IMG/VR virus record: IMGVR_UViG_2547132277_000002
DNA length: 21,851 nt
From: a virus
Taxonomy: Duplodnaviria > Heunggongvirae > Uroviricota > Caudoviricetes
Reading direction: 5' to 3' (one strand)
In this document: positions 1-19,229 of the stretch, piece by piece
How the letters are laid out: each line of letters begins with the position of its first letter
How positions within the stretch are numbered: the first letter of the stretch is position 1
Made by a program: the position numbers and the translations under genes
Notes under the pieces: model-generated
Databases searched by the model: none
What the model saw: only the letters and a program-made list of their open reading frames with translations
Told to the model about the DNA's origin: nothing

Positions 1-1024
1 TCCGTAGTTCATCATCCAGCGAGATCCGTATTGATACCGGCTGGCCACACAGGCTTTCCGGTACGCTGTAACGGTTCCCGCCAACCTCGATATAGCCATC
101 CCAGGAGACATGACGGATATCGAAATAGCTGGTATCGAAGTCCGTACCCGGCAGCGGATGCAGATGCTCCTGTTCCTGCGTGAAGCGCTGTTCCGGTGTC
201 TGCCTGAACTGGCGAAGTTCTCGCCTGTCAGCAACGTCAGCCATCCACTGCTCCAGTAGCTGGTTAACATGGGCGAAGCTGTCGAACCGGCGGTACCGGA
301 TGAAGAAGTTTTCCTTGAGGTATTTCACCATCCGTTCAACCTTACCTTTGGTTCTGGCCCTTCGTGGACGGCAGGCCCGTGGCAGGAAGCCATAGTGATC
401 GGCCAGCAGCAGGAACCCGGAGTTGAACACCACCTTCCCGTTGTTATTTTTCAGCACTGCGGCTTTCTGGTTATCGACCAGCACGGTTTTCACGCTACCG
501 CCGAAGTAGCGAAAGGCGCGGACCAGTGACTCATAGGTATGTTCAGCATCCTGCTTTGGTGCCGCGAAGACATGGAAGCGACGTGAGAACCCCAGCGTAT
601 TAACCGCGAAGTTAACCCTGCATCGTTGCCCGGCAACCTCAGCCTCAACTTCTCCCCAGTCATGCTGTAGCTGGTAACCGGGCTGAGTTTCGAAGCGAAC
701 CGTTTTCTTCGATGGCCGCATCTTACGTTTGGGCTGGATGTAGTAGCGCAACATGGAACGGCCACCGGTATAACCCATCGCTTTGATTTCCGCCAGGATG
801 ACCTCGCCGTTCCAGACGTTCTCAGCCAGACGCATATCTATATAGTCCATGAACGGCTTGAGTTTGGCCATTTTGTGGCGTGTTTTTCTGGCCGGAGGTT
901 CCGGGTATTTCAGGTACCGTCTGACGGTCCGCTCAGAGCAACCAACCTGAGTGGCAATATCAACAATATACGCACCTTGCTGGCGCATTTGCTTTATCAT
1001 GTAAAAATCCTCTCTGCTCAGCAT
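1..1024 (-). CDS. istA: IS21-family transposase IstA, N-terminal ~341 codons (C-terminus beyond window)
   Basis: Minus-strand translation from ATG at 1024-1022 reads MLSREDFYMIKQMRQQGAYIVDIATQVGCSERTVRRYLKYPEPP... with no stop to the window edge; N-terminal HTH plus DDE-type core matches IstA of IS21 as recalled. Absent from ORF track because it has no stop in window. Confidence 0.8.
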   Translation of the reverse strand, partial: MLSREDFYMIKQMRQQGAYIVDIATQVGCSERTVRRYLKYPEPPARKTRHKMAKLKPFMDYIDMRLAENVWNGEVILAEIKAMGYTGGRSMLRYYIQPKRKMRPSKKTVRFETQPGYQLQHDWGEVEAEVAGQRCRVNFAVNTLGFSRRFHVFAAPKQDAEHTYESLVRAFRYFGGSVKTVLVDNQKAAVLKNNNGKVVFNSGFLLLADHYGFLPRACRPRRARTKGKVERMVKYLKENFFIRYRRFDSFAHVNQLLEQWMADVADRRELRQFRQTPEQRFTQEQEHLHPLPGTDFDTSYFDIRHVSWDGYIEVGGNRYSVPESLCGQPVSIRISLDDELR

Positions 1025-1125
1025 GAGTGTTCCCTTTGTGGTGTAGGAACCTTAAGGAAACAACATGTTGGGTGGAGCGGACAATCCAAATGGTGAATTA
1101 CTGTCTTATATCATTGGCGCTGACA
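1..1125 (-). mobile_element. IS21-family insertion sequence, left-end portion (element continues past window start; istB expected off-window)
   Basis: istA frame runs off the window edge; ~100 bp terminal region 1025-1125 lies upstream of istA; lysozyme homology of the adjacent gene stops abruptly near 1125. Exact IS end not determinable by eye. Confidence 0.65.
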
Positions 1126-1560
1126 ATCTTTTATCCACCAGCGAATCGCCTCGCATGCACCCTTACGATCACCGGCATTCAGCCGCTTATAAAACGTCGA
1201 CGGGAAACACTTACCGGGGCCAATGTTATAGGGACAAAATGACGCTATACCCGCTTTCTGGGGTTCGCTCAATGGCACTTTGATGTTTTTCTCCACCCAT
1301 GCCAGCGCCTTATCACGCTCAATGGCGTTAACCTGGTCGCATTCTTCCTTCGACAGCTTCATTCCCGGTATGACGGGCTTACCATCCACCATTGTGGCAC
1401 CACGACAGATGGTCCATATACCGGAACCATCGCGGTATGCCGTAGTGTGGTTACCCTCTTTTTCATCCAGAAACTGGTCAAGTATTTGAGGAGCAGACGC
1501 GCCTGCAGCAATCAGCGCCAGAACAGCAGCTGACAGGCCGTATTTGATTTTTGCGCTCAT
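1111..1560 (-). pseudogene. Phage SAR-type endolysin (T4-lysozyme-like, GH24), 3-prime end truncated by the IS21-family insertion
   Basis: 149-aa ORF with N-terminal signal-anchor-release stretch YGLSAAVLALIAAGASAP and catalytic E-x8-D-x5-T spacing (E in KEG, D in RDG, T in IWT). Homology to lambdoid prophage lysozymes (RrrD-like, ~165 aa, recalled) ends after ...EAIRWWIKD; the last codons CQRQ-stop read into IS sequence. Confidence 0.7.
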
Positions 1561-1615
1561 GGATATTTATCAGGATGCTACCAATGAAAGATACTGGAAA
1601 GCCAACTGCAAAAAG

Positions 1616-1930
1616 CTAACAACCCGTAATCGAGTTATCAGAACTGTTAATTTTTATGGTATACCGCGCCTCTGAACAGGGGCGCGTTTCTGGCAACAGC
1701 TCGTCCCCTTCACATAACCCGGCAGCAACATCCAGGAAGACCTGTCTGATGCTCCTTCTGGCTGCTGCCTCATAAAACTCCAGCGCTGCACCTTCAACAC
1801 GGTCCAGCGAGATGTCCAGGTCAAAAATTTCACCGTCAAAGCGTTTTTTGTCCCGTAACGCTAAAGTTACCGTAACTTTATTCTCAAAATTGCGGATCCC
1901 TTTCACAATCAGTTCATAGTTTTGAGTCAT
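1616..1930 (-). CDS. Small phage protein between holin and lysozyme (YdfR-like, DUF1327-like by recollection)
   Basis: 104-aa ORF in the conserved holin / small ORF / lysozyme arrangement of Qin-type lysis cassettes; no recognisable catalytic motif. Confidence 0.5.
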   Translation of the reverse strand: MTQNYELIVKGIRNFENKVTVTLALRDKKRFDGEIFDLDISLDRVEGAALEFYEAAARRSIRQVFLDVAAGLCEGDELLPETRPCSEARYTIKINSSDNSITGC

Positions 1931-1934
1931 TGAA

Positions 1935-2150
1935 TTACTCTCCCCGTGCAGCCTTACGCTTGTCTTCTCTGATTTTGAAGTACAGATTTGTCAGATAAGT
2001 CAGGAAGCCCAGAACCAGACTCCCCAGTACACCAATCGCAGCCCACTGTGACGGACTGACCTGATCAAGCCACTGTAAAAACCAGTAGCCAGCACTGCCT
2101 GCGGAGGTGCCATAGGCAATGCCCGTTGAAATTTTGTCCATGGATTTCAT
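1935..2150 (-). CDS. Holin, lambdoid S-like class II (EssD family)
   Basis: 71-aa ORF with two hydrophobic helices ([19 protein letters not shown]; [23 protein letters not shown]) and a charged C-terminus [13 protein letters not shown]; near-identical to DLP12 EssD as recalled. Confidence 0.8.
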
Positions 2151-2207
2151 AGCCTCACCTCCGCAAATAACGGATGGCGTAGTTTTACACTGAGAAATGA
2201 AAGGGAT

Positions 2208-2236
2208 TTGAAAAGAAAAGCCCGCAAAAGCGGGCG
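2208..2236 (-). terminator. Rho-independent terminator between tRNA array and holin (candidate tR-prime, the target of Q antitermination)
   Basis: Plus-strand GCCCGC-AAAA-GCGGGC hairpin at 2220-2235; on the minus strand it is followed by TTTTCTTTTC. Confidence 0.5.
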
Positions 2237-2310
2237 AAACAATATATACAGTAAGGAAAGCACTCTATCCAACAAACCACCCACAGTTAATCGGAATAAA
2301 AGCAGAGTGC

Positions 2311-2383
2311 TTATGAATGATCGCCTGCCCGAAGGTTAGTATTTCTGCACAGCAATTTTGCAAAAAAAGGCGATCATTCATAA
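2311..2383. repeat. Perfect 15-bp inverted repeat (TTATGAATGATCGCC / GGCGATCATTCATAA) with 43-nt spacer
   Basis: Arms at 2311-2325 and 2369-2383 are exact reverse complements; located between tRNA-Gly and the putative tR-prime. Confidence 0.6.
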
Positions 2384-2442
2384 CTTAAACGTCCTTCAGT
2401 CACTCCGGGATTTCCCATCATCGCAGACTGAAAGACTCTGAC

Positions 2443-2517
<75 letters not shown>

Positions 2518-2520
2518 ATA

Positions 2521-2596
<76 letters not shown>

Positions 2597-2598
2597 AC

Positions 2599-2675
2599 TG
2601 GACCGCCACCGGGGACTCGAACCTCGCACACTCAACTTAAAGAGTTGACGCTCTTTCCTGATGAGCTAGTGGCGG
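2599..2675 (-). tRNA. tRNA of uncertain identity (manual fold gives anticodon UUU, Lys-like, with atypical C at position 33)
   Basis: 77 nt, CCA encoded; acceptor CCGCCAC/GTGGCGG (C1-G72), D-arm GCTC-ATCAGGAAA-GAGC, anticodon stem TCAAC/GTTGA, loop UCUUUAA, T-loop TTCGAGT. Needs tRNAscan-SE. Confidence 0.5.
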
Positions 2676-2676
2676 T

Positions 2677-2752
2677 TGGTGGCCCTTGCTGGATTTGAAC
2701 CAGCGACCTGGCGATTATGAGTCGCTCGCTCTCACCACTGAGCTAAAGGGCC
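2677..2752 (-). tRNA. tRNA with CAU anticodon, ileX/ileZ-like (tRNA-Ile2; elongator Met not excluded)
   Basis: 76 nt, CCA encoded; GGCCCTTTAGCTCAGTGGTGAGAGC...CTCATAA...GGTTCAAATCC...AAGGGCCACCA closely resembles E. coli tRNA-Ile2 as recalled; anticodon loop CUCAUAA. Confidence 0.7.
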
Positions 2753-2761
2753 GGGCGCAGG

Positions 2762-2790
2762 ATAATAACGTTACGAAATCAATGTTGCAA
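2762..2790 (-). promoter_or_regulatory. Sigma70-like promoter driving the tRNA array / late operon (candidate PR-prime)
   Basis: Minus-strand -35 TTGCAA (plus 2785-2790), 17-bp spacer, -10 TATTAT (plus 2762-2767); predicted start just upstream of the first tRNA (5-prime end at 2752). Confidence 0.45.
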
Positions 2791-2871
2791 GCATTCAAAA
2801 ATCACTTGGTTAAAAATCACCCTTATCTCCTCCACCAGCGCATTCACCATGTCTATCCGAGATAAGTGACA

Positions 2872-2894
2872 CAAAAAAACCCGCTTGATGCGGG
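2872..2894 (-). terminator. Hairpin terminator separating the cargo operon from the tRNA/late promoter
   Basis: CCCGC-TTGAT-GCGGG stem-loop at 2880-2894 preceded by an A7 run on plus (T7 after the stem on minus); only TTT follows on the plus strand. Confidence 0.5.
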
Positions 2895-2942
2895 TTTAAG
2901 TTGTGTGGCGAAGCGACCACTCTTAACAGATTAAGATAGTTT

Positions 2943-2972
2943 TTGCGTACGCGTTAGTGATTTTTTCATAAT
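2943..2972 (+). promoter_or_regulatory. Candidate sigma70 promoter for the plus-strand three-gene cargo operon
   Basis: -35 TTGCGT at 2943-2948, 18-bp spacer, -10 CATAAT at 2967-2972, ~45 bp upstream of the probable start codon. Confidence 0.4.
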
Positions 2973-2984
2973 TATCTGTATCCT

Positions 2985-3896
2985 GTGGCTATTTCTCTTG
3001 CGCAAAGGATGCTTTTGATGACGCAGCAACTCGAAAACATGCCAATAACAGAAATCGAAATTGCCTACGGTGGAGAGGCATACGCAGATAATCAGATCGA
3101 CGCGAAAACATTAGGCGAAGCCTTAACCTCTCTTAGTGCCCTGATTGAACACGCCGAAAAAATAATTAATGGCGAAACAGCAGAGCCGAAAGTCAACATC
3201 AAGGCAACAAAAGAAGGTTCATTTACTTTGCTTGTTGCTGTGATGGGGAGCATAAAAACTATTAACGCCCTTGGCCTCGTTGCAGGTGGTGGAGTTGCCG
3301 CAGGTGGCGTACTCGGGATAATCGAATGGCTCAAAGGGCGTAAAATCAGCTCCATTGTCGTCGATGAACAAAAAGATACAGCAGAAATCGAAGTGGATGG
3401 TGAGAAGGTTAAATGCAGTAACGACATTCAAAAATTAATAACCAGTCCAATCATCCGAAAAGAACTGGATAAATTAATCTATAAACCCCTGCAGACTGAA
3501 AAACCATCCACGTTCTCAGTTTCACAGCAGAAGCATAAGGTAGTCAGGGTGACGCAAGCTGAAGCAGTAAGTTTTAAAACTGCAAAATCCACCTTTGTCG
3601 AGAAAACGCACGTAACGACACGCCAAGCTAATGTACATTTTGCTAATGTTCGATTCAAGCAAGGCAAAAGCTGGGATATCATCCTGCCAAATGGCGAAGA
3701 AGTTAGCGCATCTATGAAAGATGAGGCTTTTCTTGAACGGGTTGAACACAACCAAGCAGCATTCTGTAAGGGTGATCTTTTTGTTGTAGAACTGACAGAA
3801 ACAACAAAAGAAACAAATGGCGCGCTGTCTAAACCACGCTATAGTATTACTAAGGTTATACGCCACAGAGCGGCGGCAGATAGGAAACTACTTTAA
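2985..3896 (+). CDS. Cargo gene A: unknown protein with a central Gly-rich hydrophobic segment (probable start ATG 3018, 292 aa)
   Basis: ORF-track start 2985 is GTG; ATG at 3018 has AAGGA 8 nt upstream. Hydrophobic stretch FTLLVAVMGSIKTINALGLVAGGGVAAGGVLGIIEWL; no motif I can assign. Opposite strand to every flanking phage gene. Confidence 0.6.
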   Translation: MAISLAQRMLLMTQQLENMPITEIEIAYGGEAYADNQIDAKTLGEALTSLSALIEHAEKIINGETAEPKVNIKATKEGSFTLLVAVMGSIKTINALGLVAGGGVAAGGVLGIIEWLKGRKISSIVVDEQKDTAEIEVDGEKVKCSNDIQKLITSPIIRKELDKLIYKPLQTEKPSTFSVSQQKHKVVRVTQAEAVSFKTAKSTFVEKTHVTTRQANVHFANVRFKQGKSWDIILPNGEEVSASMKDEAFLERVEHNQAAFCKGDLFVVELTETTKETNGALSKPRYSITKVIRHRAAADRKLL

Positions 3897-3899
3897 ATC

Positions 3900-4145
3900 A
3901 TGTCAATCCTAAGCATTATGCTTTACATCACTGTATTCATGGCTGTCGCAGCGACGGTCAGATATGCTGTGCTTAGGTTCTTGGTTTGGGTAAAGCCGAA
4001 TGCGTATATTGAACTAACCTACACCGATCCTGAAGGCAGAACCGCTAAAAGGAAAGTCAGCGTTAGAAACGAAAATGACGCAGAAGAGTTGGCGCTACTG
4101 CTACGCGAACTCAAAACTCGCAACGAAGCAAGTGCAGGAAGGTGA
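3900..4145 (+). CDS. Cargo gene B: small protein with N-terminal transmembrane helix and charged C-terminus
   Basis: 81 aa; ILSIMLYITVFMAVAATVRYAVLRFLVWV hydrophobic; starts 4 nt after gene A stop. Confidence 0.55.
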   Translation: MSILSIMLYITVFMAVAATVRYAVLRFLVWVKPNAYIELTYTDPEGRTAKRKVSVRNENDAEELALLLRELKTRNEASAGR

Positions 4146-4532
4146 ATGGCGAACACTAAATCCTACCTGGCAATGCAGGCATGGTTTACCACCCTTATCA
4201 CTGCGGGATTGAATTTCCTTTTTGACTGGCTTCCTCAATTAGCCTTCTTCAAATCATTGGCGCCTGGAGCTGCTGTCGGCTTATCTCATGTGGTAATTCT
4301 TCTTATCGCTTACATAGGTTTGCCTACGCTTAATGATGTAAGAATGAAAAGGGAAATAAAAACGGCCAGAAAATTCATCACGAACTGCCTGGCCAACCCT
4401 AACCTAACACCAGACCAAATTGCGCACTACAACCAATGTCTTATCGATCTAGACAATAAGCTATTAAAAAACATAAATATTCGTATTGATGCTTTATCTG
4501 ACGCCGAATCGAAAGCTCAAGCAAACGAGTAG
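4146..4532 (+). CDS. Cargo gene C: predicted membrane protein (two hydrophobic helices) with a soluble C-terminal ~70 aa
   Basis: 128 aa; TGA-ATG junction with gene B; SD GGAAGGTGA upstream; helices WFTTLITAGLNFLFDWL and AAVGLSHVVILLIAYIGL. Confidence 0.6.
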   Translation: MANTKSYLAMQAWFTTLITAGLNFLFDWLPQLAFFKSLAPGAAVGLSHVVILLIAYIGLPTLNDVRMKREIKTARKFITNCLANPNLTPDQIAHYNQCLIDLDNKLLKNINIRIDALSDAESKAQANE

Positions 4533-4545
4533 TAACAGTCATAAC

Positions 4546-4902
4546 TTATGATAGAATCAAGCATATACATCCATCAATAAAGCCTAATGCAGTTTGCAGC
4601 TCCTTTCTTATAGTTCCATCTGAGCACCTGCGTTTCTTCGCGATTGAGCGTAGAGAAACACCAATAACAAAGTGAGCTATGAGCAGCTCATATTCCTCTG
4701 GTTTATACTTTCGCAACCGAGCCACACAACCGTCTATCATGATGCCTTCATCATCATCACACTGGAGACGTGACTTTTTGCCATGTGGCAAAAGCCTCTT
4801 GAAGCCCGCTGCTATCGGTTGCCAATCGACACCGCTATTTTCTGCTGCAGCCCATGCCCCCCAGCGATCTAAAACCTCATACATATCACGCCCCATTACC
4901 AT
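4546..4902 (-). CDS. Late-gene antiterminator Q (phage 21 / DLP12 QuuD-like family)
   Basis: 118 aa; motifs VLDRWGAWAA, IAAGFK, Cys-rich segments; conserved position downstream of rusA; resembles QuuD-type Q as recalled. Confidence 0.7.
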   Translation of the reverse strand: MVMGRDMYEVLDRWGAWAAAENSGVDWQPIAAGFKRLLPHGKKSRLQCDDDEGIMIDGCVARLRKYKPEEYELLIAHFVIGVSLRSIAKKRRCSDGTIRKELQTALGFIDGCICLILS

Positions 4903-5257
4903 CGCCTCTGATTTCGCAAATCTTCACGCCCAGCCGCCCACCAGGAACGAGCTGACCGCGCACAATATTGATTTCATCAAACTGCTCGTCGTCTATAAGT
5001 AGTCCGGCATGCGTCAGCGCATCCAGTGGTGCCTTCAGGATATTGTCCAGGTCGCGGCGGCGCTTATCCGGTGGCTCTGCAATCACCTTTATCGCCAGCC
5101 TTCCGGACAGGCTTAATTTCAGCCGCTGCTGGCGAACAATAAGCGCCACAGCCCGGCGATAACGCTTTCCCTCCTCCGAGATAAAATATGTGCTGCCACG
5201 GCGTCGCCAGTAAGTGTTCACCGTCGGCGGGTAAGGTAAAACCAAATCTATGAGCAT
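4886..5257 (-). CDS. rusA: Holliday-junction resolvase RusA
   Basis: 123 aa; PYPPTVNTYW... and RRRDLDN motif typical of RusA; nin-region position upstream of Q. Confidence 0.8.
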   Translation of the reverse strand: MLIDLVLPYPPTVNTYWRRRGSTYFISEEGKRYRRAVALIVRQQRLKLSLSGRLAIKVIAEPPDKRRRDLDNILKAPLDALTHAGLLIDDEQFDEINIVRGQLVPGGRLGVKICEIRGDGNGA

Positions 5258-5269
5258 CAGTCACCTCTT

Positions 5270-6319
5270 TTACCCAAGCACGCCAGTTGCAAAGGCGTGA
5301 TCAAGAAAACGAAAAATTAAATCAACCTGAGAACCATGCTTTTCTTCGAACGCCAGCGGATCCGCATGAAGCTCGTTGTGATGCTCCCGACACAGCGGTA
5401 GCGTGAAAATATCGTGAGATTTTGTCCCCATTCCGCCCTGACCATGACCAATCAGGTGATGGGGATCGTCGGCTGGCTTACCACAACACGCACACGGCTG
5501 TGTCTTCACCCAGCGAGTGTATTTCTCGTTAACCCAGCGGCGACGTTTAGGTCGTTTCATGAAAGATTCCGGAGACTCAGGATCAACGGCAATGCTGACC
5601 ACCGTCTTTTCCTGTGGTGGGTTCTGTTGCTGGTGGGCGTGAGGCAGCGGCGCAAGATTTTTTGTGCGCTGTTTCAGTATGCTGGTGGCGGTCTGCTCTC
5701 CCGGTACGATGTCGCTTTCACGGTACATGGAGCGGATTTTTTCCACACGCAACCCCAGCGAACGACGTAATACCGCTTCCGGTAGCGCGTCCGCCACCTG
5801 ATTGCGGACCGCCCACCAGGATAATTCAGCCAGAGATAATTCACGCTCCTGCGTACCGCTTATTGCGTGACCGATGACGTCAATCATCCATGCTGACAGG
5901 TTTTGATGAGCAAGTTGCTCGAGTGATTCGGATGTCTGGTCACGCAGCTGGTTGTCGCAGTGCCAGCACAACACCATTGCGCCGGTACCATAACGGTGAA
6001 TGACGGTTTCGCTGTGATGATAATCGCCGTGTGGCCACTGGCAGGATTTAATATGGCGCAACAGCCAGTCAGACAATGCACCAGCACCACCAGCAGCACG
6101 AATCACCCGCTCATCGCTGAAAAATGGCAGTAATGATTTATCCTCCGCCAGCGGCTGGCGAACGGCAGGAACGACCCCGGACGGCAGACCGCGCATGCTT
6201 TTTGGCTCCGGTTCAACCAGCACTCTGCCGTTATGGAATACCTGCATGGATTCACGACCTGGCTTAACGATAACCACCCCAAGTTCCGGCACCAGAACAG
6301 GTCGAAGTAATACCCGCAC
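5270..6319 (-). CDS. DUF968-family nin-region protein (YdfU-like)
   Basis: 349 aa; C-terminal Cys/His-rich block QPCACCGKPADDPHHLIGHGQGGMGTKSHD...CREHHNELH recalled as DUF968 of Qin-type prophages. Confidence 0.65.
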   Translation of the reverse strand: MRVLLRPVLVPELGVVIVKPGRESMQVFHNGRVLVEPEPKSMRGLPSGVVPAVRQPLAEDKSLLPFFSDERVIRAAGGAGALSDWLLRHIKSCQWPHGDYHHSETVIHRYGTGAMVLCWHCDNQLRDQTSESLEQLAHQNLSAWMIDVIGHAISGTQERELSLAELSWWAVRNQVADALPEAVLRRSLGLRVEKIRSMYRESDIVPGEQTATSILKQRTKNLAPLPHAHQQQNPPQEKTVVSIAVDPESPESFMKRPKRRRWVNEKYTRWVKTQPCACCGKPADDPHHLIGHGQGGMGTKSHDIFTLPLCREHHNELHADPLAFEEKHGSQVDLIFRFLDHAFATGVLG

Positions 6320-6320
6320 G

Positions 6321-6593
6321 TTACCTCCAGATGCGTTGCTGGAATGTGCGGGACGGACGCGGTGGGCGTTCGGAATAAGGGAGCCTGACAGAAATTATCC
6401 AGTGTCGGAAGTCAGGGCCGAGGTCTTTCTGAAAGTCGTACCCACGCCTGCGGTAGTTCTGAATCAGCCATTCGGCCTGTTCTTCAGTGCATGGGGCATG
6501 CTGGTACCAGTCATATTTGAATGTATGAGAACGCCGCCCGTGCCAGCTGGCAAGGTCGGTATCAGAATTGTGATGTTTGGTATTGTGCGCCAT
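6321..6593 (-). CDS. Hypothetical small phage protein (nin region)
   Basis: 90-aa ORF ending 1 nt before the DUF968 gene start (coupled); no recognised motif. Confidence 0.4.
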   Translation of the reverse strand: MAHNTKHHNSDTDLASWHGRRSHTFKYDWYQHAPCTEEQAEWLIQNYRRRGYDFQKDLGPDFRHWIISVRLPYSERPPRPSRTFQQRIWR

Positions 6594-6660
6594 CGGTTTT
6601 CTCTGCTGGCGCAGCAGGTGCCAGTTGTTCAGGCTGGCCTGTAGATTGTAAACCAGAATA

Positions 6661-6690
6661 CGTAAAACAAAAAACCCGCCGAAGCGGGTT
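6661..6690 (-). terminator. Rho-independent terminator downstream of the HTH-peptidase gene
   Basis: AACCCGC-CGAA-GCGGGTT stem at 6673-6690; on the minus strand followed by TTTTTTGTTTT. Confidence 0.6.
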
Positions 6691-6694
6691 ATGC

Positions 6695-7816
6695 CTAGTG
6701 AATTTTGCCTCTAAGAGTTCGGTAAGATTGTAGTGAAACAACATCACCACTTCCTGGCAGTTCATGAACCGCAGGAAGATCATCTCCTACTAACTCATAA
6801 AAAATGTCCACTTCTATATCCATTTCATCAGCTATACGCTGTGGGTCGTATCCTAACTCTTCAAATAAAAACGATAAAGCCCGACGGAATAACTCAGGAC
6901 GCTCATGAGGGATTAGATAATCTTCTTTTTCATCAATAGCTTCCCCTTTCCGTTTCAACCCCATAAATGCAGTTCTGTACTGCTCATCAGTCAAAAGTCC
7001 TAATTGATGAGCCCTGTAAACAATGGCAGCCTTACTTACTTTCCATGTCAACTTAAATTGGCTTAGTCCCTGCCAATTTATCCTCCCCCCCACAGGTCTT
7101 GGAAAATATTTCGCCATCGACGTTCTGGGAAGCAACAGAGCAGAGGCAAAACGGTTTGCCTGGGATTCAGTTAATCTATCCCCAGTAGAAATTCCTTCAT
7201 GAAGAATCAAATGGGCAACCTCATGAGCAATATCAAAGCGTTGCCTACAAGGTGAATTTTTAGCTGTATTTCGAACAATAAAAGGCCTTCGTAGAGGAAC
7301 AGACAGTGCATCTACTTCATCCGAAACGGAGTCAAATGAAGTAACAAACGCCCCAAGTTTCTCGGCAAGGCGAGTCATATTTTCAATTGGGCCAAAGCCT
7401 AAGCCCCACTCAATACGACATTTTTCTGCCGCTCGCTCGATATCTTCTTGTGTATGGACACGAAATTCAGGAAATCGAACAGGTGACAAATTAAGGTTAT
7501 CTTCAAATACATCAATAAAACGACGATAAAACTCAGCCTTAGCGAGTGTTGATAGCTTCGTTGACATCCTTGTCGAGGCGCGTTTACGAAAATGTACAAT
7601 CTCTTCATTAACAGGAGAATGTTCCTGCCCTTCGAAAAAGGCGGGCTTCACGCGCAAAACCTCGGCTAATTTATTTATAAGCTCTGGGGATGGAGTAGCT
7701 GAACCAGACTCCAGTCGCTGTACATACTGGCGTGTTTTTTCAACCTTCTCAGCAACCTGCTCCAGAGATAGCTCGTGATACAGACGAGCAAGTCTTAAAT
7801 TAGTACCGTTAAACAC
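6695..7816 (-). CDS. Fused XRE-family HTH regulator / ImmA-IrrE (COG2856) zinc metallopeptidase
   Basis: 373 aa; N-terminal HTH LRLARLYHELSLEQVAEKVEKTRQYVQRLESG; HEXXH zinc motif in DIAHEVAHLILHEG; GTG start 11 nt after the upstream gene stop. Confidence 0.8.
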   Translation of the reverse strand: MFNGTNLRLARLYHELSLEQVAEKVEKTRQYVQRLESGSATPSPELINKLAEVLRVKPAFFEGQEHSPVNEEIVHFRKRASTRMSTKLSTLAKAEFYRRFIDVFEDNLNLSPVRFPEFRVHTQEDIERAAEKCRIEWGLGFGPIENMTRLAEKLGAFVTSFDSVSDEVDALSVPLRRPFIVRNTAKNSPCRQRFDIAHEVAHLILHEGISTGDRLTESQANRFASALLLPRTSMAKYFPRPVGGRINWQGLSQFKLTWKVSKAAIVYRAHQLGLLTDEQYRTAFMGLKRKGEAIDEKEDYLIPHERPELFRRALSFLFEELGYDPQRIADEMDIEVDIFYELVGDDLPAVHELPGSGDVVSLQSYRTLRGKIH

Positions 7817-7826
7817 ATTTCACCCA

Positions 7827-8420
7827 CTATTTGCTATTTTGTTTCTTTTCCTTCTCAGTCTTAGACGCACTGATAGGTTCTAGTTCGATAGGTACCGGTG
7901 CTGGAGGTACATCATCGACAGAGTTCAGCATAACAACACGGTCCGCACCATATGTCCAAGTTGACACGATCTCACCAAACACGTTATAGCCATTAAAAAT
8001 GACTCTACCACCCTCGCCTTCAAATTCAGGCTTTTCAACCACAAAGCGATGCATAGTTGGAGTAGTCTCCTCTGACTCAAAGAGTCGATCAGCATCATTT
8101 CTTTTGAAAAAACCGCGTTTCTTGGGGTTATCTGCGTCATCAGTAAAGAAACGAATAGGGACATTCCCAATTGAAAACGTAAGATCCATGCCAGGATTAA
8201 GTAGTCTTAACCAGTCATATGTCTTTCGTACGCACATTTGTAGCAACGCCTGCCGCTGACGCCCAAATGTACAACCACCACGAGTGTAATTATCATCATA
8301 GGGCGATGACAATAACTCATGAGTAATATCCTGTATCCTGAGCAACTCCTCAGCTATAATGGTTAAACGCACCTCTGTTAACTCAGGAAAGAACTCCCAA
8401 GGGAATGGATGGTTCTGCAT
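7827..8420 (-). CDS. Unknown protein, first gene of the two-gene cassette (197 aa from ATG 8420; ORF track extends to 8468)
   Basis: ATG at 8420 has GGAG 8 nt upstream; the longer start would overlap promoter-like TTGACA boxes. No recognisable domain. Confidence 0.55.
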   Translation of the reverse strand: MQNHPFPWEFFPELTEVRLTIIAEELLRIQDITHELLSSPYDDNYTRGGCTFGRQRQALLQMCVRKTYDWLRLLNPGMDLTFSIGNVPIRFFTDDADNPKKRGFFKRNDADRLFESEETTPTMHRFVVEKPEFEGEGGRVIFNGYNVFGEIVSTWTYGADRVVMLNSVDDVPPAPVPIELEPISASKTEKEKKQNSK

Positions 8421-8469
8421 AGACACTTCTCCGCCTAATCCGTGCAAAAAACGACTTTTGTCAACCAAG

Positions 8470-8498
8470 ATATTGGTGCATATTCATAATTTTGTCAA
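8470..8498 (-). promoter_or_regulatory. Possible promoter for the two-gene cassette (weak -10)
   Basis: Minus-strand TTGACA (plus 8493-8498) directly after the terminator T-run, 17-bp spacer, -10 CAATAT (3 of 6); a second TTGACA at plus 8459-8464. Confidence 0.3.
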
Positions 8499-8499
8499 C

Positions 8500-8523
8500 A
8501 AAAAAAAACCCCGCCGAAGCGGG
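8500..8523 (-). terminator. Rho-independent terminator upstream of the two-gene cassette (downstream of the ParA-like gene)
   Basis: CCCGC-CGAA-GCGGG stem at 8510-8523; on the minus strand followed by T9 (plus A-run 8500-8508). Hairpin nearly identical to the one at 6673-6690. Confidence 0.65.
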
Positions 8524-8870
8524 TTAAGTGCGGGTGCGTTGAGGATGCCTGACACATCAGAGGTGGCGAGGGATTTCTCCCTCGCCTGGTCTCTTACTCC
8601 TCAGGTTCGTAAGCTGTGAAGACAGCGACCTCCGTCTGGCCGGTTCGGATTCGTACCTCGCAGAGGTCTTTCCTCGTTATCAGTACCGCAACAATTTCGT
8701 ATTCATGATTCATTTCATCTAAAACAGTTCATAAACCTAAATAAATTCAAAAAATCACAACACAAATAAATATAAATTATCTCATCCTGAAGAACGATAG
8801 GATTATTTAGAATTAATAACAATTAATGTAACAATAATTATCAATCCAGATTATTCAAATAAAATGTCAT

Positions 8871-9917
8871 TTACCATATGGAGTTGTGAATGAACTTTAA
8901 TTCATTTTTTATTTTGTTAACAGATAAATTCACGGATGTCCTAACTCTATTCACAGTCATTGCATCTCCTGGATTTAACAACTCTAATGGTTTAGACTTA
9001 GCACTTGACATTCTGCCACTACCCAGAAAATCATCAAGAATCACAATGTGATTATTAGGATCATCTGTTGTAAAATTACTAATATTTTGTCGAATTACCT
9101 CTCTTACAGCTTCGATGTACATTTTTGTCTGTTGATTTGGTTTATTCCTTGCTCCTGCCACTGTTGACCATCCGCAATGGGTAATAACCACCATCTGAAT
9201 TTTTGGTGTATGGCCATCAGACGGCATTATCTTTCTAAATTCTGATGTTGGTTTAGTCAGAGTATCAATAAGTAATCTTAATGAATTAATCGATTGCTGA
9301 TCTGTCCTCACTGGAACTATTAAAGCATCTGTTGCATGCCAAGATAAATGCGTCGCTCCAGAGAAAAAAGGTGATGTATCAATTAACGCTTTTGTAGTAC
9401 CAGTTTCAACCATTTCTCTGGCTATTTCTTTCTTCAGAGAAAAAAGAATTGTATCAATAACAACCTGCTGAGTAGCCCCAGAAATTGTTCTGGCTTGAGC
9501 CAGAGCATTCGCCATTTGCGTAGGTAGAAGATAAAGTTGACTATCAGATTGAATAAAATAGTTATTCTTGCCCGCAAACCAAGCATTAGTTGATGATACT
9601 AGCTTTGCAGCACGCGTTGCAAATCCAAGCCCTGGAACAAAATAAGGCATTAAGAGGTCATTTGCAGTTGTGCTAGACGAAGATGCATAATTATTGTCAA
9701 AAAAATATGATAAATTTCCTTGCGGGCACGTATCCACGATTAATGCGTTATCCGCCAAATATGACAGATTAAAAGTTAAAGATGTCTTACCAATGCCTCC
9801 CCGTAAATTACATACTGTATATTTATCATATTTCGGCAAATTAAGACTTCTTACATTACCGTCAGCAACTTCGAATTGACGCTCTATCAGAGCATTAACA
9901 TTTGATTCACTAGTCAT
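8871..9917 (-). CDS. ParA/MinD-family (SIMIBI) P-loop ATPase-like protein, standalone, AT-rich
   Basis: 348 aa; deviant Walker A NLRGGIGKTS (Arg at the signature-Lys position), IVDTCPQGN (ParA DxDPQ-type motif), ALIDTSP Walker-B-like; sampled lines ~34% GC versus ~50-55% in the phage backbone. Confidence 0.65.
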   Translation of the reverse strand: MTSESNVNALIERQFEVADGNVRSLNLPKYDKYTVCNLRGGIGKTSLTFNLSYLADNALIVDTCPQGNLSYFFDNNYASSSSTTANDLLMPYFVPGLGFATRAAKLVSSTNAWFAGKNNYFIQSDSQLYLLPTQMANALAQARTISGATQQVVIDTILFSLKKEIAREMVETGTTKALIDTSPFFSGATHLSWHATDALIVPVRTDQQSINSLRLLIDTLTKPTSEFRKIMPSDGHTPKIQMVVITHCGWSTVAGARNKPNQQTKMYIEAVREVIRQNISNFTTDDPNNHIVILDDFLGSGRMSSAKSKPLELLNPGDAMTVNRVRTSVNLSVNKIKNELKFIHNSIW

Positions 9918-9947
9918 ATCGCCACCATTAGTTTTACACTTTTATTG

Positions 9948-9976
9948 ATGATATGGAAAACTAACCTAGTTGTCAA
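9948..9976 (-). promoter_or_regulatory. Near-consensus sigma70 promoter for the ParA-like gene
   Basis: Minus-strand -35 TTGACA (plus 9971-9976), exact 17-bp spacer, -10 TATCAT (plus 9948-9953), ~30 bp upstream of the ATG at 9917. Confidence 0.55.
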
Positions 9977-10401
9977 CAATGGATTAAAAAACAAACACAC
10001 AAGCGTTTATCAAAAGCACCTTGATTGGTGATACTACCGTGTCTTTCAGCCAAACAGTTCAGTATGTAAAGCGAATCCAACATCAATTAAGAACGTTTTC
10101 AGCGCTCCCCCAGTTGTCTAGATGTCAAACTTCATGCGCTCTCCTGTCGAAATAAACGTACTGATTAATCATGCCCAAGGACATTTCGCGTTTTACAGCG
10201 ATATCACGGCGGGGAACTCCACACTGATGAAGCTTCCGCACTAGCTCAATATCGCTTTGCGGATGTTTTTTTGATTGGTTATAACCCCCCCTCTTAACAT
10301 CCTATTGATACCCAGTTCCTGCGCTTTCGCTCTGACAGCATAACTAGAACGATCAATCAACCCTCCTATGCTTTCGGCCGTCAACGCGTCTACACAATTG
10401 C

Positions 10402-10857
10402 CTAAGCGCCATGATTTCCCTCATGCACAACCTGTTCACCGAATGTCTCTCGAAAACCATTCTGGTAAAATGCCAGTACACGCTGCATAGCTTCGCTCTT
10501 CCGGCACTCGCGACAGATTATGTTCTGACGCCTGTCGTAGCGACGTATTTCTCCGTCAGGTAATGACCAGATAAGGTCCGGATCAACCGCAGATGGTTTC
10601 TTCAGCTTTGCCCTTGAGAGCTTTTTACGGGCATTTTGCCAGTCCTTACGCGCCTGTTCAGACGGGAATAACCCGTAACCAGAGTTGTATACATCGCCAC
10701 TGGCAACCAGCTCTCTGGCCAGAACGCTCATCAGATATCTTGTTGCCCCAGTTTTAGTTTCCAGTTGTCGTAACGTCTCGCGCCCACTCTGGCGTACGAG
10801 TTCAACAACCTGCCCTTTAATTTTTTCCCGCTCTTCTTGTGTAAAAACTTTTGCCAC
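10402..10857 (-). CDS. Hypothetical phage protein downstream of the replication initiator
   Basis: 151 aa; GTG start with strong SD AGGAGGG 4 nt upstream; no assignable motif. Confidence 0.5.
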   Translation of the reverse strand: MAKVFTQEEREKIKGQVVELVRQSGRETLRQLETKTGATRYLMSVLARELVASGDVYNSGYGLFPSEQARKDWQNARKKLSRAKLKKPSAVDPDLIWSLPDGEIRRYDRRQNIICRECRKSEAMQRVLAFYQNGFRETFGEQVVHEGNHGA

Positions 10858-10897
10858 AAGCCCTCCTGAAAATTACCTCATGACCAGAAATTAACAC

Positions 10898-11968
10898 TTA
10901 CCCCCTGAAGCCCGGCGGAATTTCGTTATCCGGTTCAGAAATATGATTCACACAACGCTGGTTGTTCGTGCCGCTTACCGGGAGCAACCAGGGGTTCTCA
11001 AAATTCCGGTCCGGTCCAAAAAACGTCGTCGCTCGCTGAACAAATTCCGTTCCCGTTTTCCCGGTAGCCGCCAAGTATCTTGCGTAACGCCTCACGCCAT
11101 CCAGCATGGCCTCTGGTGGCACCCCCTCGCGTAATCTGGCCTTCCAGGCACTGAAAGCGGATTTCTTCGGGTTTGCCCCGGCACGCAACGGGTATTCCCG
11201 CCAGACCTGTTCGAACACATCAGGATAATCCACTCGTCCCACAGGCTGCCCGGTGTTTTCCGGGACTACCCGATCGGCTTCCCGCTGAATGGCGGAATCG
11301 GCTTCAGGCTGCTGAAGTTGGTGTGATTGCTCCTGCCTTGCGGTCATCACCTGCTGCACAGCGCCCGAATCGGCTTTCAGCGCATACGCTGAATCGGCTT
11401 CCGGTGTCGTGCCTGCGGGCTGGCCAGGAGTGACGGTCTGAACATCCCCTGCCTGGTTCGTGGCGTTTTTTACGCCATGGACCATAGTGTTTTGATCTTC
11501 TTGATCTGTATCTTTATCTGTATCTTTATCTGTCGTGACTCGTCGTGACATGTGCGTGACATTTCGTGACTCGCCGTGACAATCGCCATTTTGTTCCCGC
11601 TTTCTTTCCCTCTCTCGCTGCGCCCTCTTGCGCTCTGCCGGAGATTTTGCGGTTTGCGAAATATTGCCGTTGTCCTCTTTCAGCACCTGGCGTTTTTCCC
11701 ATCCAGTGATTAAATCACCATCAAGTACCCGCCCCTGCATCGTCTGCAAAATTGAATCAATTACCTCTTCTGTCACGTCGAGCGCACTTGCCAAATCTTC
11801 TGTCGTGACATCAATGTGACCTCGCGTGACATTTCGTGACGCGCTCACCAGGAGGTGGATATACACTGCCATCACTGTTGCAATTGGCTGCCCTGACACC
11901 CTGGCAATTGTTCGCCACTTAGGGTCATTTGGCATGTCATGCCATAATCTGAGCCAGGCGTTAGCCAT
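10898..11968 (-). CDS. Replication initiation protein (lambda O-like organiser N-terminus, DnaT-like C-terminus) with internal iterons
   Basis: Probable start ATG 11968 (SD GAGG 5 nt upstream; ORF-track GTG at 11974); acidic DKDTDKDTD linker; C-terminal YPLRAGANPKKSAFSAWKARL recalled as DnaT-like; position after the cII-like gene. Confidence 0.65.
   Translation of the reverse strand: MANAWLRLWHDMPNDPKWRTIARVSGQPIATVMAVYIHLLVSASRNVTRGHIDVTTEDLASALDVTEEVIDSILQTMQGRVLDGDLITGWEKRQVLKEDNGNISQTAKSPAERKRAQRERERKREQNGDCHGESRNVTHMSRRVTTDKDTDKDTDQEDQNTMVHGVKNATNQAGDVQTVTPGQPAGTTPEADSAYALKADSGAVQQVMTARQEQSHQLQQPEADSAIQREADRVVPENTGQPVGRVDYPDVFEQVWREYPLRAGANPKKSAFSAWKARLREGVPPEAMLDGVRRYARYLAATGKTGTEFVQRATTFFGPDRNFENPWLLPVSGTNNQRCVNHISEPDNEIPPGFRG
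11509..11532. repeat. 12-bp tandem direct repeat TATCTTTATCTG x2 (encodes DKDT repeats on minus strand)
   Basis: Exact duplication at 11509-11520 and 11521-11532, immediately adjacent to the iteron array. Confidence 0.7.
11534..11580. repeat. Iteron array: five CGTGAC repeats at 10-11 bp spacing (candidate replication origin)
   Basis: CGTGAC at 11534, 11544, 11555, 11565, 11575 (plus strand), inside the replication gene as in lambda ori. Confidence 0.55.
11773..11840. repeat. Second cluster of CGTGAC / GTCACG motifs
   Basis: GTCACG at 11773; CGTGAC at 11804, 11825, 11835; degenerate TGTGAC at 11815; 10-11 bp spacing. Confidence 0.4.
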
Positions 11969-12039
11969 ACTCACCTCTTTTGATACCGAATCTTTTTACT
12001 CACAAATTGCCGGAAGTGATCCGGTATGAATATTGCGAG

Positions 12040-12465
12040 TCAATGCACAGCCACAATATTTCCTGCAGGGCCACCACGATTCATCTGGTTGAAACCAGCG
12101 ATCGCCACTGCGACAAAATCATCAGCGTCTCTCACCAGTCGTTCCCGCGTCTCCACTAGTTCCCGAAAATACGCTGAGCTATGACTGCGCATTCGGGCCA
12201 CCAGCAGAGGTGGCATTGCTTTTTCGATAGCTGGTAACAACGCCTGAATTTTTTTAACCGCATCAGGGGTGTCTTTCTCCACCCAGCGGAAAATTTTCTG
12301 AGTATTGCGAGCCAGGGCTTCCGGATGGCTGTCGTCATACAGTTCCGGGAACGTCATTCCCAGCTCGAAATACGCTTTGGTAATTTTCGCAGCCGGTACT
12401 TTTTCGCCGTCCGGATGCGCCCAGGCATTCATCGCCATGCGGATGTGTTCATGCTTGATTTTCAT
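12040..12465 (-). CDS. YdaT-like (cII-type) regulator of Rac-like prophages
   Basis: 141 aa beginning MKIKHEHI and ending VH, as recalled for Rac YdaT; start overlaps the stop of the upstream Cro-like gene (ATGA). Confidence 0.65.
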   Translation of the reverse strand: MKIKHEHIRMAMNAWAHPDGEKVPAAKITKAYFELGMTFPELYDDSHPEALARNTQKIFRWVEKDTPDAVKKIQALLPAIEKAMPPLLVARMRSHSSAYFRELVETRERLVRDADDFVAVAIAGFNQMNRGGPAGNIVAVH

Positions 12466-12716
12466 GAATCAACTCCCATCAGCTTTTTCGTAGTAGTTTT
12501 ATTCCTGCCAATAGTTAAAATTGCATCGGCAGAAAATAATCCGTTTGATGCAAGAGCGATTTTTTCAGCGTAATTTGTTTCGCCGGTATATTCTGTGCGA
12601 GGCAATTTTCCGTTATCCATCCATTTATAGATTGCTCTTTGGCTGACACCACAAACGTCGGCCACAACAGCAACGCGAACAGTTTTGATTACATCTTCAA
12701 GTGTTTTCTGGTTCAT
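12462..12716 (-). CDS. Cro-like HTH regulator (YdaS family)
   Basis: Probable start ATG 12716 (SD GAGGGTG 4 nt upstream), 84 aa; HTH VADVCGVSQRAIYKWMDNGKLP; divergent from the repressor gene. ORF-track start 12788 lies in the operator region. Confidence 0.65.
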   Translation of the reverse strand: MNQKTLEDVIKTVRVAVVADVCGVSQRAIYKWMDNGKLPRTEYTGETNYAEKIALASNGLFSADAILTIGRNKTTTKKLMGVDS

Positions 12717-12795
12717 ATCACCCTCACAATGTGAACTTTGAGTACATGCCATAACAGAACTGACAGTACATTCAAGAGCGAATATCATTGAACTT
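12717..12795. promoter_or_regulatory. Divergent promoter/operator region (OR-like) between Cro-like and repressor genes
   Basis: Two AGTACAT motifs (12741-12747, 12765-12771) and inverted repeat TGAAC-TTATG-GTTCA (12789-12803) spanning the repressor start codon. Confidence 0.5.
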
Positions 12796-13215
12796 ATGGT
12801 TCATGAAGATAAAGCGCGTAAAGAGTTCGCCAGTAGGCTTGCGCTAGCCTGTGAAAACGCTGGTTATGAACAACATGGAAGGCAGGCAGAAATTGCCCGT
12901 CGAATGAAATTAACACCAAAAGCGGTTAGCAAATGGTTTAATGGCGAAACAATTCCTCGCCGGGAGAAATTAAGGGAATTAGCAACACTAATAGGAACAA
13001 CACCAACCTATCTTTTGGGAGAGGATACAGAAGAAAGTGGACAGGTACGTTTCTATCAGGAGTTAAATCCAAGACAAAAAATCATCATTGACCTTCTGGA
13101 CGAGCTCCCTGACAGTGAGACAGATGAACTTTTAAAAACTCTTGAAGAGAAAAAACAGAAGTACAATGCAATTTACGAAGAGTTAGCACGAAAGAAAAAA
13201 CAAAAAGCCTCTTAA
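12796..13215 (+). CDS. Prophage repressor, HTH-only (RacR/CI-like; no LexA-type autopeptidase domain)
   Basis: 139 aa; HTH GRQAEIARRMKLTPKAVSKWFNGE; same strand as the early-left genes and int; divergent from the Cro-like gene. Confidence 0.65.
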   Translation: MVHEDKARKEFASRLALACENAGYEQHGRQAEIARRMKLTPKAVSKWFNGETIPRREKLRELATLIGTTPTYLLGEDTEESGQVRFYQELNPRQKIIIDLLDELPDSETDELLKTLEEKKQKYNAIYEELARKKKQKAS

Positions 13216-13290
13216 ACCAGCATAAATCCGGTAGCGCCTTCCTCCGGGTTTGTGCTTCACTTTATCCCATCTCATTTTTTTACACACAAA

Positions 13291-13331
13291 ATGTACTAAA
13301 AGTACTTTACAACAATGAACGCAAAGTACAT
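13291..13331. promoter_or_regulatory. OL-like operator cluster downstream of the repressor gene
   Basis: Palindrome GTACTAAAAGTAC (13293-13305) and further AGTACAT-type motifs at 13291-13297 (inverted), 13301-13307 (variant), 13325-13331. Confidence 0.4.
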
Positions 13332-13512
13332 TATATGCCTACCACCCACCCCGCCCCACAGAATGCAGGGCAATACTTCGAGTTACCAGGCAGTGGTCAG
13401 GGGTTAAGTAGCCAGCCCGAGGCGTAAGAACATGACGGCAGGGTTCAACTTTAATAACTATGCAGCAGGTTTTTGTTCCGCTACCCCGGCGTTAAGGGGA
13501 AATGAGGTCAGC

Positions 13513-13668
13513 ATGGATACTATCGATCTTGGCAACAGCGAATCTCTGGTATGTGGCGTGTTCCCCAACCAGGACGGTACGTTCACCGCGATGACGTATA
13601 CCAAAAGCAAAACGTTTAAAACCGAAAATGGTGCCCGTCGCTGGCTGGAAAGAAACTCAGGTGAGTGA
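13513..13668 (+). CDS. Small early-left protein, YdaF-like (DUF1391-like by recollection)
   Basis: ATG 13513 with GAGG 6 nt upstream; 51 aa MDTIDLGNSESLVCGVFPNQDGTF...; the ORF-track N-terminal extension lacks an RBS. Confidence 0.5.
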   Translation: MDTIDLGNSESLVCGVFPNQDGTFTAMTYTKSKTFKTENGARRWLERNSGE

Positions 13669-13669
13669 T

Positions 13670-13798: not shown

Positions 13799-13827
13799 TA
13801 AGCGAAACAGCACCGCGAGGAATCAGT

Positions 13828-14046: not shown

Positions 14047-14068
14047 TAGCTAACCAACGAGGCTAATA

Positions 14069-15195: not shown

Positions 15196-15213
15196 TTGTT
15201 GAGGACGCGATAA

Positions 15214-18153: not shown

Positions 18154-18404
18154 TGTTCAACCGTCGCCAGTTGTCGTTGGTATTCTGCAACTGGCGCGTT
18201 CCGGAGTGATAGCCATGAGCGAACAATACCTGATAACGCTCGATGAGTGGAAACCAAAACGGTTCAGTCTCCCAATAACAAACACTACCCTGGTGAAATA
18301 CGGAAAACTAGGATACATCGTTCCAAGACCACAAAAAATTCGTGGGCGTTGGCTGATAGATCGCCGAGCAGTATTTGTTGGGCCTGGTGGGTAGTGACTC
18401 CAAC

Positions 18405-18908
18405 TTACTGATAGTGTTTTATGTTCAGATAATGCCCGATGACCTTGTCATGCAGCTCCACCGATTTTGAGAACGACAGTGACTTCCGTCCCAGCCTTGC
18501 CAGATGTTGTCTCAGATTCAGATTATGTCGCTCAATGCGCTGAGTGTAACGCTTGCTGATAACGTGCAGCTTTCCCTTCAGGCGTGATTCATACAGCGGC
18601 CAGCCATCCGTCATCCATACCACGACCTCAAAGGCCGACAGCAGGCTCAGAAGACGCGCCAGTGTGGCCAGAGTGCGTTCACCGAAAACGTGCGCCACAA
18701 CTGTCCTCCGTATCCTGTCATACGCGTAAAACAGCCAGCGCTGACGTGATTTAGCACCGACGTAGCCCCACTGTTCGTCCATTTCCGCGCAGACAATCAC
18801 ATCACTGCCCGGTTGTATGCGCGAGGTTACCGACTGCGGCCTGAGTTTTTTAAGTGACGTAAAACCGTGTTGAGGCCAACGCCCATAATGCGGGCAGTTG
18901 CCCGGCAT
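18405..18908 (-). CDS. insB: IS1 InsB frame (expressed as the InsAB-prime transposase by -1 frameshift)
   Basis: 167-aa ORF overlapping the insA 3-prime end in the -1 frame, as in IS1. Confidence 0.85.
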
Positions 18909-19102
18909 CCAACGCCATTCATGGCCATATCAATGATTTTCTGGTGCGTACCGGGTTGAGAAGCGGTGTAAGTGAACTGCAGTTGCCATGTTTTACGGCA
19001 GTGAGAGCAGAGATAGCGCTGATGTCCGGCGGTGCTTTTGCCGTTACGCACCACCCCGTCAGTAGCTGAACAGGAGGGACAGCTGATAGAAACAGAAGCC
19101 AC
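18827..19102 (-). CDS. insA: IS1 InsA
   Basis: 91-aa [48 protein letters not shown]..., zinc-finger/HTH protein of IS1. Confidence 0.9.
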
Positions 19103-19229
19103 TGGAGCACCTCAAAAACACCATCATACACTAAATCAGTAAGTTGGCAGCATCACCGGCCTGGTGAAACGGGAATTGCGCCGGAAATTCATACTGGCGA
19201 TGATGATGCACTGAAGGAGATTTTAACTC

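Follow-up and report, generated by a model that had tools for sequence, protein, structure and literature searches.

The endolysin gene of a defective Qin-like lambdoid prophage was found to be cut short by ISEc62, a described member of the IS21 family of insertion sequences. The DNA analysed (hereafter the window; 21,851 nucleotides, IMG/VR virus record IMGVR_UViG_2547132277_000002) contains the left part of the element and the 5' part of the gene. An ISEc62 insertion truncating the endolysin of an already defective prophage was the best explanation overall, with a probability of roughly 0.9. The identity of the element, the exact breakpoint, the target duplication, the ancestral allele and the order of events were established by direct reading and by comparison with related genomes. 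In the mechanism we propose, ISEc62 transposed into codon 145/146 of a 177-codon gene of the rrrQ/phage-21 R type, in a simple insertion that duplicated 4 bp (AGAT). The C-terminus of the enzyme is swapped for CQRQ, which probably gives a misfolded or inactive product, and the IS parts the holin, ydfR and endolysin genes from Rz/Rz1. Were the late operon ever activated, depolarisation of the membrane by the pinholin would still be expected, with the cell wall left undegraded. A hit of IS1 on xis followed later, in a sub-branch.

Identity of the inserted element

The left 1,125 bp of ISEc62 occupied window positions 1..1125 (minus strand), as judged by identity to annotated copies, and the remainder lay off the window. 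Positions 1-2200 of the window were compared with 5,426 complete E. coli genomes using megablast. From position 1125 to 1, the window showed 99.5-100% identity to many copies of 'IS21-like element ISEc62' carried by chromosomes and plasmids of E. coli. Matches restricted to the element ended at window positions 1126-1135, whichever gene adjoined. The full element of 2,125 bp, with istA and istB, was seen at the same site in the near-identical genome of E. coli B2C (NZ_CP035874.1; source: human stool, Viet Nam). Compared with known ISEc62, the 1,125 bp in the window had 100% nucleotide identity, and the terminal repeat, the istA-istB order and the 4-bp duplication were all the same. No difference was found in the element itself; only its left half is within the window.

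The ends were extracted from four independent ISEc62 copies. All four started with TGTCAGCGCCAATGATATAAG, sharing the start TGTCAGCGCC..., and all four had ...CTTGGCGTTGACA as their terminus. The left terminal inverted repeat, TGTCAGCGCCAA, was located at 1114..1125 (minus strand) by direct reading and copy comparison. Of its 12 bases, 11 were shared with the right end, TGTCAACGCCAA, so the terminal inverted repeats are imperfect, and they have the 5'-TG...CA-3' form of IS21 elements. A sub-terminal repeat, TGTCCGCT, was present at 1076-1083, and an identical 8-mer occurred near the right end, each of the two lying approximately 42 bp inside its end of the element; repeated sub-terminal sites are a feature of the IS21 family. 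Target duplications of 4 bp were found in three independent copies (AGAT, AAGG and CTGA), within the IS21 range of 4-8 bp. A duplication of 5 bp or 2 bp, suggested by IS-only matches reaching window position 1126 or beyond, was ruled out, as three insertions with both flanks available gave the ends TGTCA...TGACA plus 4 bp.

The first 341 of the 390 codons of istA were encoded at 2..1024 (minus strand). The frame ran from 1024 to 2 on the same strand as the lysozyme ORF and reached the window edge without a stop, as the initial annotation had described. It encoded a helix-turn-helix, an rve (DDE) and a Mu-transposase C-terminal domain (Pfam HTH_23; rve, 5.5e-14; Mu-transpos_C_2, 2.3e-10). The 341-aa part of IstA matched the NCBIfam equivalog transpos_IS21 with 283 bits, above the cut-off of 160; in B2C the protein is annotated by RefSeq as WP_000952425.1. 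In the B2C copy at the same site, istA was followed, outside the window, by istB (IstB_IS21, 9.7e-88; IS21_help_AAA, 296 bits against a cut-off of 200), and the RefSeq IstB of ISEc62 is WP_000544809.1. The element, recognised as a member of the IS21 family in the initial annotation, is ISEc62 by nucleotide identity and an IS21 transposon by the transpos_IS21 profile, and every family feature that could be tested was present.

Truncation of the endolysin and predicted consequences for lysis

On the minus strand, window positions 1-2200 contained, in order, a holin gene, ydfR, the lysozyme ORF and istA. The holin (1935..2150, minus strand; 71 aa) was an intact phage-21-type class II holin of the S21 pinholin family (Pfam Phage_holin_2_1 'Bacteriophage P21 holin S', 1.4e-35). 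Between holin and endolysin lay an intact ydfR-like gene (1616..1930, minus strand; Pfam DUF1327, 5.1e-39). An S21-family pinholin in the same cassette is the context expected of a SAR endolysin, and the gene studied here shares with other endolysin genes of the RrrQ/R21 type a position beside an S21-type holin and upstream of Rz/Rz1. The lysozyme ORF itself (1111..1560, minus strand; ORF list, Pfam and RefSeq) encoded 149 aa, consisting of residues 1-145 of a 177-aa GH24 lysozyme of the RrrQ/R21 type followed by CQRQ and a stop.

Direct reading of the minus strand gave ...CGC TGG TGG ATA AAA GAT | TGT CAG CGC CAA TGA, in which the bar falls between window positions 1126 and 1125. In the lysozyme frame this translates as ...W W I K D | C Q R Q stop. 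The four codons and the stop to the right of the bar (1111..1125, minus strand) stem from the inverted repeat of the IS, and all ISEc62 copies examined opened with these same 15 bases, TGT CAG CGC CAA TGA. The initial annotation had placed the breakpoint at about 1125, inside the coding sequence, and had attributed the last codons and the stop to the IS; the position proved exact to the base and the attribution was confirmed. AGAT at 1126..1129 (minus strand) was the left-hand member of the target-site duplication of 4 bp. Its second copy lies outside the window, beyond the other end of the IS, where it was seen in B2C. The uninterrupted site, GATAAAAGATGGTGG, was present in strains MB06101 and 99-3165.

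The insertion removes the last 32 residues of the enzyme (146-177; GGRDCRIRSNNCYGQVIRRDQEAALVCWGIDS) and puts CQRQ in their place. The lost stretch holds a conserved G-x3-RR-x2-E...WG segment and three cysteines, and its G, RR, E and WG columns are conserved between RrrQ and R21. The 177-aa protein aligned end to end with RrrD (4ZPU) and R21; against phage 21 R (3HDE), query residues 12-174 aligned to chain residues 8-163. Residue 145 corresponds approximately to R21 residue 141 of 165, and every solved homologue extends at least 17 residues beyond the break. The crystallised 140-aa catalytic domain of R21 (3HDF) aligned through query residue 174, which places the lost segment inside the globular domain. 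The intact protein covered positions 2-125 of the Pfam Phage_lysozyme profile (PF00959), whereas the truncated ORF matched positions 2-110 of 125 (1.5e-22, 80.7 bits), a loss of the last 15 positions (111-125).

The N-terminal part of the enzyme was retained. The catalytic triad, E35-x8-D44-x5-T50, aligned with that of R21 and conformed to the GH24 pattern. A putative SAR-like anchor (residues about 8-23) in a Gly/Ala-rich N-terminus also appears to be kept in the truncated ORF; GLSAAVLALIAAGASA followed by Pro would fit a weakly hydrophobic, Gly/Ala/Ser-rich SAR anchor, and the 3HDE alignment starts within it, at query residue 12. A GH24 domain, an N-terminal anchor and the E35/D44/T50 triad are shared among RrrQ of Qin, phage 21 R (3HDE/3HDF), RrrD (4ZPU) and the endolysins of mEp460 and phage 86. 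The parent protein of residues 1-145 shares 93-97% identity with the endolysins of plaque-forming phages such as mEp460 and Stx2-converting phage 86, and the isolated phages mEp460, PhiR47_1 and Stx2 phage 86 all encode the full 177-aa form at this level of identity. In contrast to these RrrQ/R21-type endolysins, the window ORF lacks the last 32 residues and does not encode a complete catalytic domain through the conserved C-terminal segment.

Since the anchor-like segment and the triad are intact, and Pfam still gives the 149-aa fragment 80.7 bits, the truncated enzyme might be thought to be still active, the IS having trimmed a dispensable tail without disabling the lysis cassette. We consider this unlikely. 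The segment removed lies within the crystallised catalytic domain of R21, is conserved between RrrQ and R21, corresponds to Pfam positions 111-125 and occurs in every closely related phage copy, and Rz/Rz1 have in addition been moved 2.1 kb away. C-terminal nonsense fragments of T4-type lysozymes are generally inactive. Together with a break that falls within the globular domain, this suggests that the truncated protein is likely misfolded or inactive, with loss of activity. The window gene is thus best regarded, on sequence grounds, as a truncated pseudogene of the RrrQ/R21 SAR-endolysin family and not as a working member.

Downstream of the IS, Rz was intact (Pfam Phage_lysis, 7.5e-50). The holin-ydfR-endolysin genes are now separated from the Rz/Rz1 spanin genes by 2.1 kb of IS, and Rz is further from the late promoter, so that the IS may exert polarity on Rz/Rz1. 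The initial annotation had called the prophage likely lysis-defective. The missing part of the fold, which is conserved, and the splitting of Rz/Rz1 from the late transcript argue for this claim, whereas the triad and the anchor are still encoded, and a lysis defect is therefore a prediction.

Chance or selection

IS21-family elements were also found in lysozyme genes elsewhere. Independent ISEc62 insertions in prophage lysozyme genes were present at codon 122 in strain 510016 and at codon 134, with the duplication AAGG, in strain 32A22CPO009, and IS21 proper was found in another lysozyme type in GN05064/GN04979. The shared orientation of the lysozyme insertions was rejected as a biological feature, because the search joined only pieces on the same strand and the opposite orientation was not retrievable.

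Such repeated hits would be explained if the insertion had been selected and was not neutral, in that disarming a leaky SAR endolysin would lift the fitness cost of a cryptic prophage. Insertions at other codons and in other lysozyme types arose independently in other E. coli lineages, and the allele described here has persisted long enough to occur on at least 23 public contigs, both of which are in line with selection. However, the lysozyme gene family had 10,617 copies in the 5,426 genomes, and with this number of targets and abundant ISEc62 a handful of insertions is expected by chance. Moreover, most sibling strains keep the endolysin gene intact, and the IS-only matches adjoined unrelated genes in 18 of the 19 listed cases. 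Selection of the insertion is therefore improbable. The broader proposal, that the repeated insertions of IS21-family elements (ISEc62 at codons 122, 134 and 145, and IS21 proper in a fourth lineage) reflect either selection against a leaky SAR endolysin or a target preference for the lysis region, is improbable as well; if true, it would make IS21-family elements a regular route of prophage domestication. The query was biased toward finding such insertions. With this bias and more than 10,000 gene copies, there is no evidence that IS21-family insertions in lysozyme genes exceed chance.

A literature search returned nothing specific on C-terminal truncation of SAR endolysins or on IS-disrupted endolysins in cryptic prophages, and ISEc62 appeared in it only in papers on plasmids.

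Ancestral allele and spread of the junction

The genome of B2C differed from window positions 1-18389 by 3 mismatches (99.98% identity over 18.4 kb). At the locus, RefSeq annotates a 435-nt piece as 'lysozyme, incomplete, missing C-terminus', then istA and istB of ISEc62, and then a second 'lysozyme, incomplete' of 99 nt. The reciprocal junction read ...GGCGTTGACA|AGATGGTGGACGCGATTGCCGC, with the missing 99-nt 3' piece of the gene adjoining the other end of the IS, together with AGAT. When the IS and one AGAT were removed in silico from the B2C sequence, a 177-aa ORF was obtained. Its DNA was identical (534/534) to the intact rrrQ of eight complete genomes, including 99-3165, F5656C1, FMU073332, LR882973, E70, E143, E272 and E1624. 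The same eight genomes carried the int/xis end of this prophage at 99.9%.

The right end of the element is off the window, and a simple insertion with duplication was seen in B2C and, over the part read, in CM007915.1; a simple insertion with a 4-bp duplication is inferred for the window's own genome.

The exact junction between ISEc62 and the lysozyme gene occurred in one of the 5,426 complete genomes, that of B2C. An exact-sequence look-up retrieved the 149-aa fusion protein from at least 23 public contigs; five of these, from independent assemblies, were read, and each had the same junction. One of the matching sequences, the chromosome CM007915.1, was identical to the window over 5,060 bases. 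On this evidence the insertion is genuine and heritable, and it is limited to a single clone. It took place recently, with little further consequence for phage production.

An assembly chimera, arising from the collapse of a repeated IS, would be conceivable for a multicopy element with 8 matching places in B2C alone, and short-read contigs do break within ISEc62. It is nevertheless highly improbable, since B2C and CM007915.1, both assembled to chromosome level, share the identical junction with several independent drafts and one metagenome scaffold, and since the reciprocal junction with the matching duplication exists in B2C. The two conditions that the initial annotation named as refuting, a 149-aa protein that is naturally complete or an IS boundary outside the gene, found no support and can practically be discarded, as the final four codons and the stop are those of all ISEc62 copies examined, the 3' 99 nt of the gene follow directly past the other IS end with a 4-bp duplication, in silico excision yields a 177-aa ORF identical to the sibling alleles, and functional phages encode the 177-aa form.

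The case is already known, in that the gene carries a pseudogene annotation in RefSeq for B2C. It is better annotated as lysozyme::ISEc62, a pseudogene, and protein entries for the 149-aa ORF are best avoided. The finding is of little importance beyond correct annotation.

Prophage context and order of decay

The prophage splits the potABCD operon, with potB on one side of it and potC on the other. The window carried the Qin-like early region with ydfA, ydfB, ydfC, dicB and ydfD, the DicF RNA (14987-15038; Rfam, 68.6 bits), a small Q gene and four tRNA genes. The Q gene looked intact, and a two-gene insert and a Q remnant were located between it and the tRNAs. The integrase gene was intact (19230-20348). 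In B2C, the region left of the window showed a fusion of a 5' portal fragment with a 3' tail-protein fragment, and no head or tail-shaft genes were present.

Qin, DLP12 and Rac are IS-eroded cryptic lambdoid prophages of E. coli K-12. The prophage studied here resembles such elements in that the lambdoid immunity and dicB-DicF region, the lysis cassette and accessory genes were kept, structural genes were lost and IS elements were found in phage genes. It differs from Qin, DLP12 and Rac in being located at potB-potC and not at the K-12 sites, and in that ISEc62 in R and IS1 in xis are lineage-specific. Genes of cryptic lambdoid prophages are commonly interrupted by IS elements, and the insertion described here is ordinary prophage decay.

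A second insertion was found at the other end of the window, where IS1 (18390..19157, minus strand; 768 bp) followed codon 58 of the 89-codon xis gene, as determined from its flanks and from the empty site in B2C. The element was bordered by a 9-bp duplication, GGCCTGGTG, at 18381-18389 and 19158-19166, and an exact 23-mer of the IS1 end was located at 19135-19157; both the 768-bp length and the 9-bp duplication are those of IS1. The two xis pieces lay at 18215-18389 and 19167-19261. The otherwise identical B2C sequence lacks this IS1. The truncated Xis has 59 aa, and this fragment was found on eight public contigs, one of which belongs to an assembly with the ISEc62 junction as well. The IS1 hit in xis proposed in the initial annotation was thereby verified.

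Strain 99-3165 has the same potB-prophage-potC arrangement and the same portal/tail pseudogene fusion, but its rrrQ and xis are intact. The structural deletion thus preceded both IS insertions, which hit a prophage that could no longer form particles. The order of decay accordingly reads as a deletion of structural genes, followed by ISEc62 in the endolysin gene on the B2C branch and by IS1 in xis in a sub-branch that includes the window. The description of a grounded prophage in the initial annotation was right in that the prophage is defective and both IS insertions are real. It was the portal-to-tail deletion outside the window, however, that was the chief cause, and the IS insertions were late and secondary. 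The locus provides a clean, datable decay series, whose steps may be useful as lineage markers of the E. coli clone concerned, with dicB, DicF and ydfABC persisting while phage functions erode.

In 99-3165 and F5656C1, IS1 was present at a different site of the same prophage, showing ongoing, independent erosion by IS elements.

Integration site and loss of structural genes

The prophage sits between potB (11280–12143 in L003, the extracted locus of E. coli B2C, whose genome is near-identical to the window) and potC, which is followed by potD (potC and potD, window 20515–21851); the potABCD spermidine/putrescine transporter operon is therefore split. The head and tail genes were deleted to the left of the window, as seen in B2C and in the sibling strain 99-3165. 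There, the 5' part of a portal gene was fused to the 3' part of a tail-protein gene, and tail-fibre-assembly remnants came next (L003 12375–15681; L007, the locus of 99-3165, 5838–9144). This deletion occurred both in strains that carry ISEc62 in the endolysin gene and in strains that lack it, and it therefore predates that insertion.

Insertion sequences in xis and in prophage lysozyme genes

The integrase gene int (window 19230–20348) was intact, and xis was split into two pieces (window 18215–18389 and 19167–19261) by a 768-bp IS1 (window 18390–19157) located after codon 58. This IS1 was flanked by the 9-bp duplication GGCCTGGTG, the site with its repeats spanning window 18381–19166. The xis site was empty, that is, without IS1, in B2C and eight sibling genomes, and the truncated Xis (59 aa) was present on 8 public contigs. 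The siblings 99-3165 and F5656C1 carried an IS1 at a different site of the same prophage (L007 27160–27929; L008, 1067–1713), equivalent to window ~14302, beside a ydfC-adjacent gene. This IS1 entered the prophage independently.

Other E. coli insertions lie at the extracted loci L004 (4625), L005 (2501–4625) and L006 (3721–5824). In strain 510016, ISEc62 interrupted a prophage lysozyme gene at codon 122, together with a downstream deletion and an IS1 remnant; in 32A22CPO009 it did so at codon 134, with the duplication AAGG. GN05064/GN04979 carried IS21 proper inside a different prophage lysozyme gene, of the glycoside-hydrolase type. These are independent IS21-family events in prophage lysozyme genes, and their recurrence is, because of copy numbers, probably due to chance. 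In MB06101, rrrQ was intact and ISEc62 lay several hundred bp downstream of it.

Late-operon region and accessory genes

Between the antiterminator gene Q and the holin gene, four tRNA genes were found on the minus strand (window 2443–2752): Gly-TCC, Thr-TGT, Lys-TTT and a CAT-anticodon tRNA, the latter assigned to Met by ARAGORN but to Ile in the RefSeq annotation. Two plus-strand genes separated the intact Q (116 aa; window 4546–4896, minus strand) from what remains of a different Q antiterminator (36 aa; window 2810–2920, minus strand). One matched NCBIfam LAPAL_fam (window 2985–3896; 225 bits), and the other (window 4146–4532) had no family match in Pfam or NCBIfam. This arrangement within window 2810–4896 resembles a mosaic or moron insertion ahead of the late operon.

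The Qin-like cell-division-inhibition module was kept intact in the decaying prophage, with the small RNA DicF (window 14987–15038, plus strand; Rfam RF00039, 68.6 bits) adjoining dicB, and dicB and ydfD at window ~15213–15589. Within the prophage, the RefSeq annotation of B2C places the 3' part of a hok/gef toxin gene beside an intact ParA-family gene (window 8594–9917, minus strand); the two are plasmid-like cargo in a lambdoid backbone.
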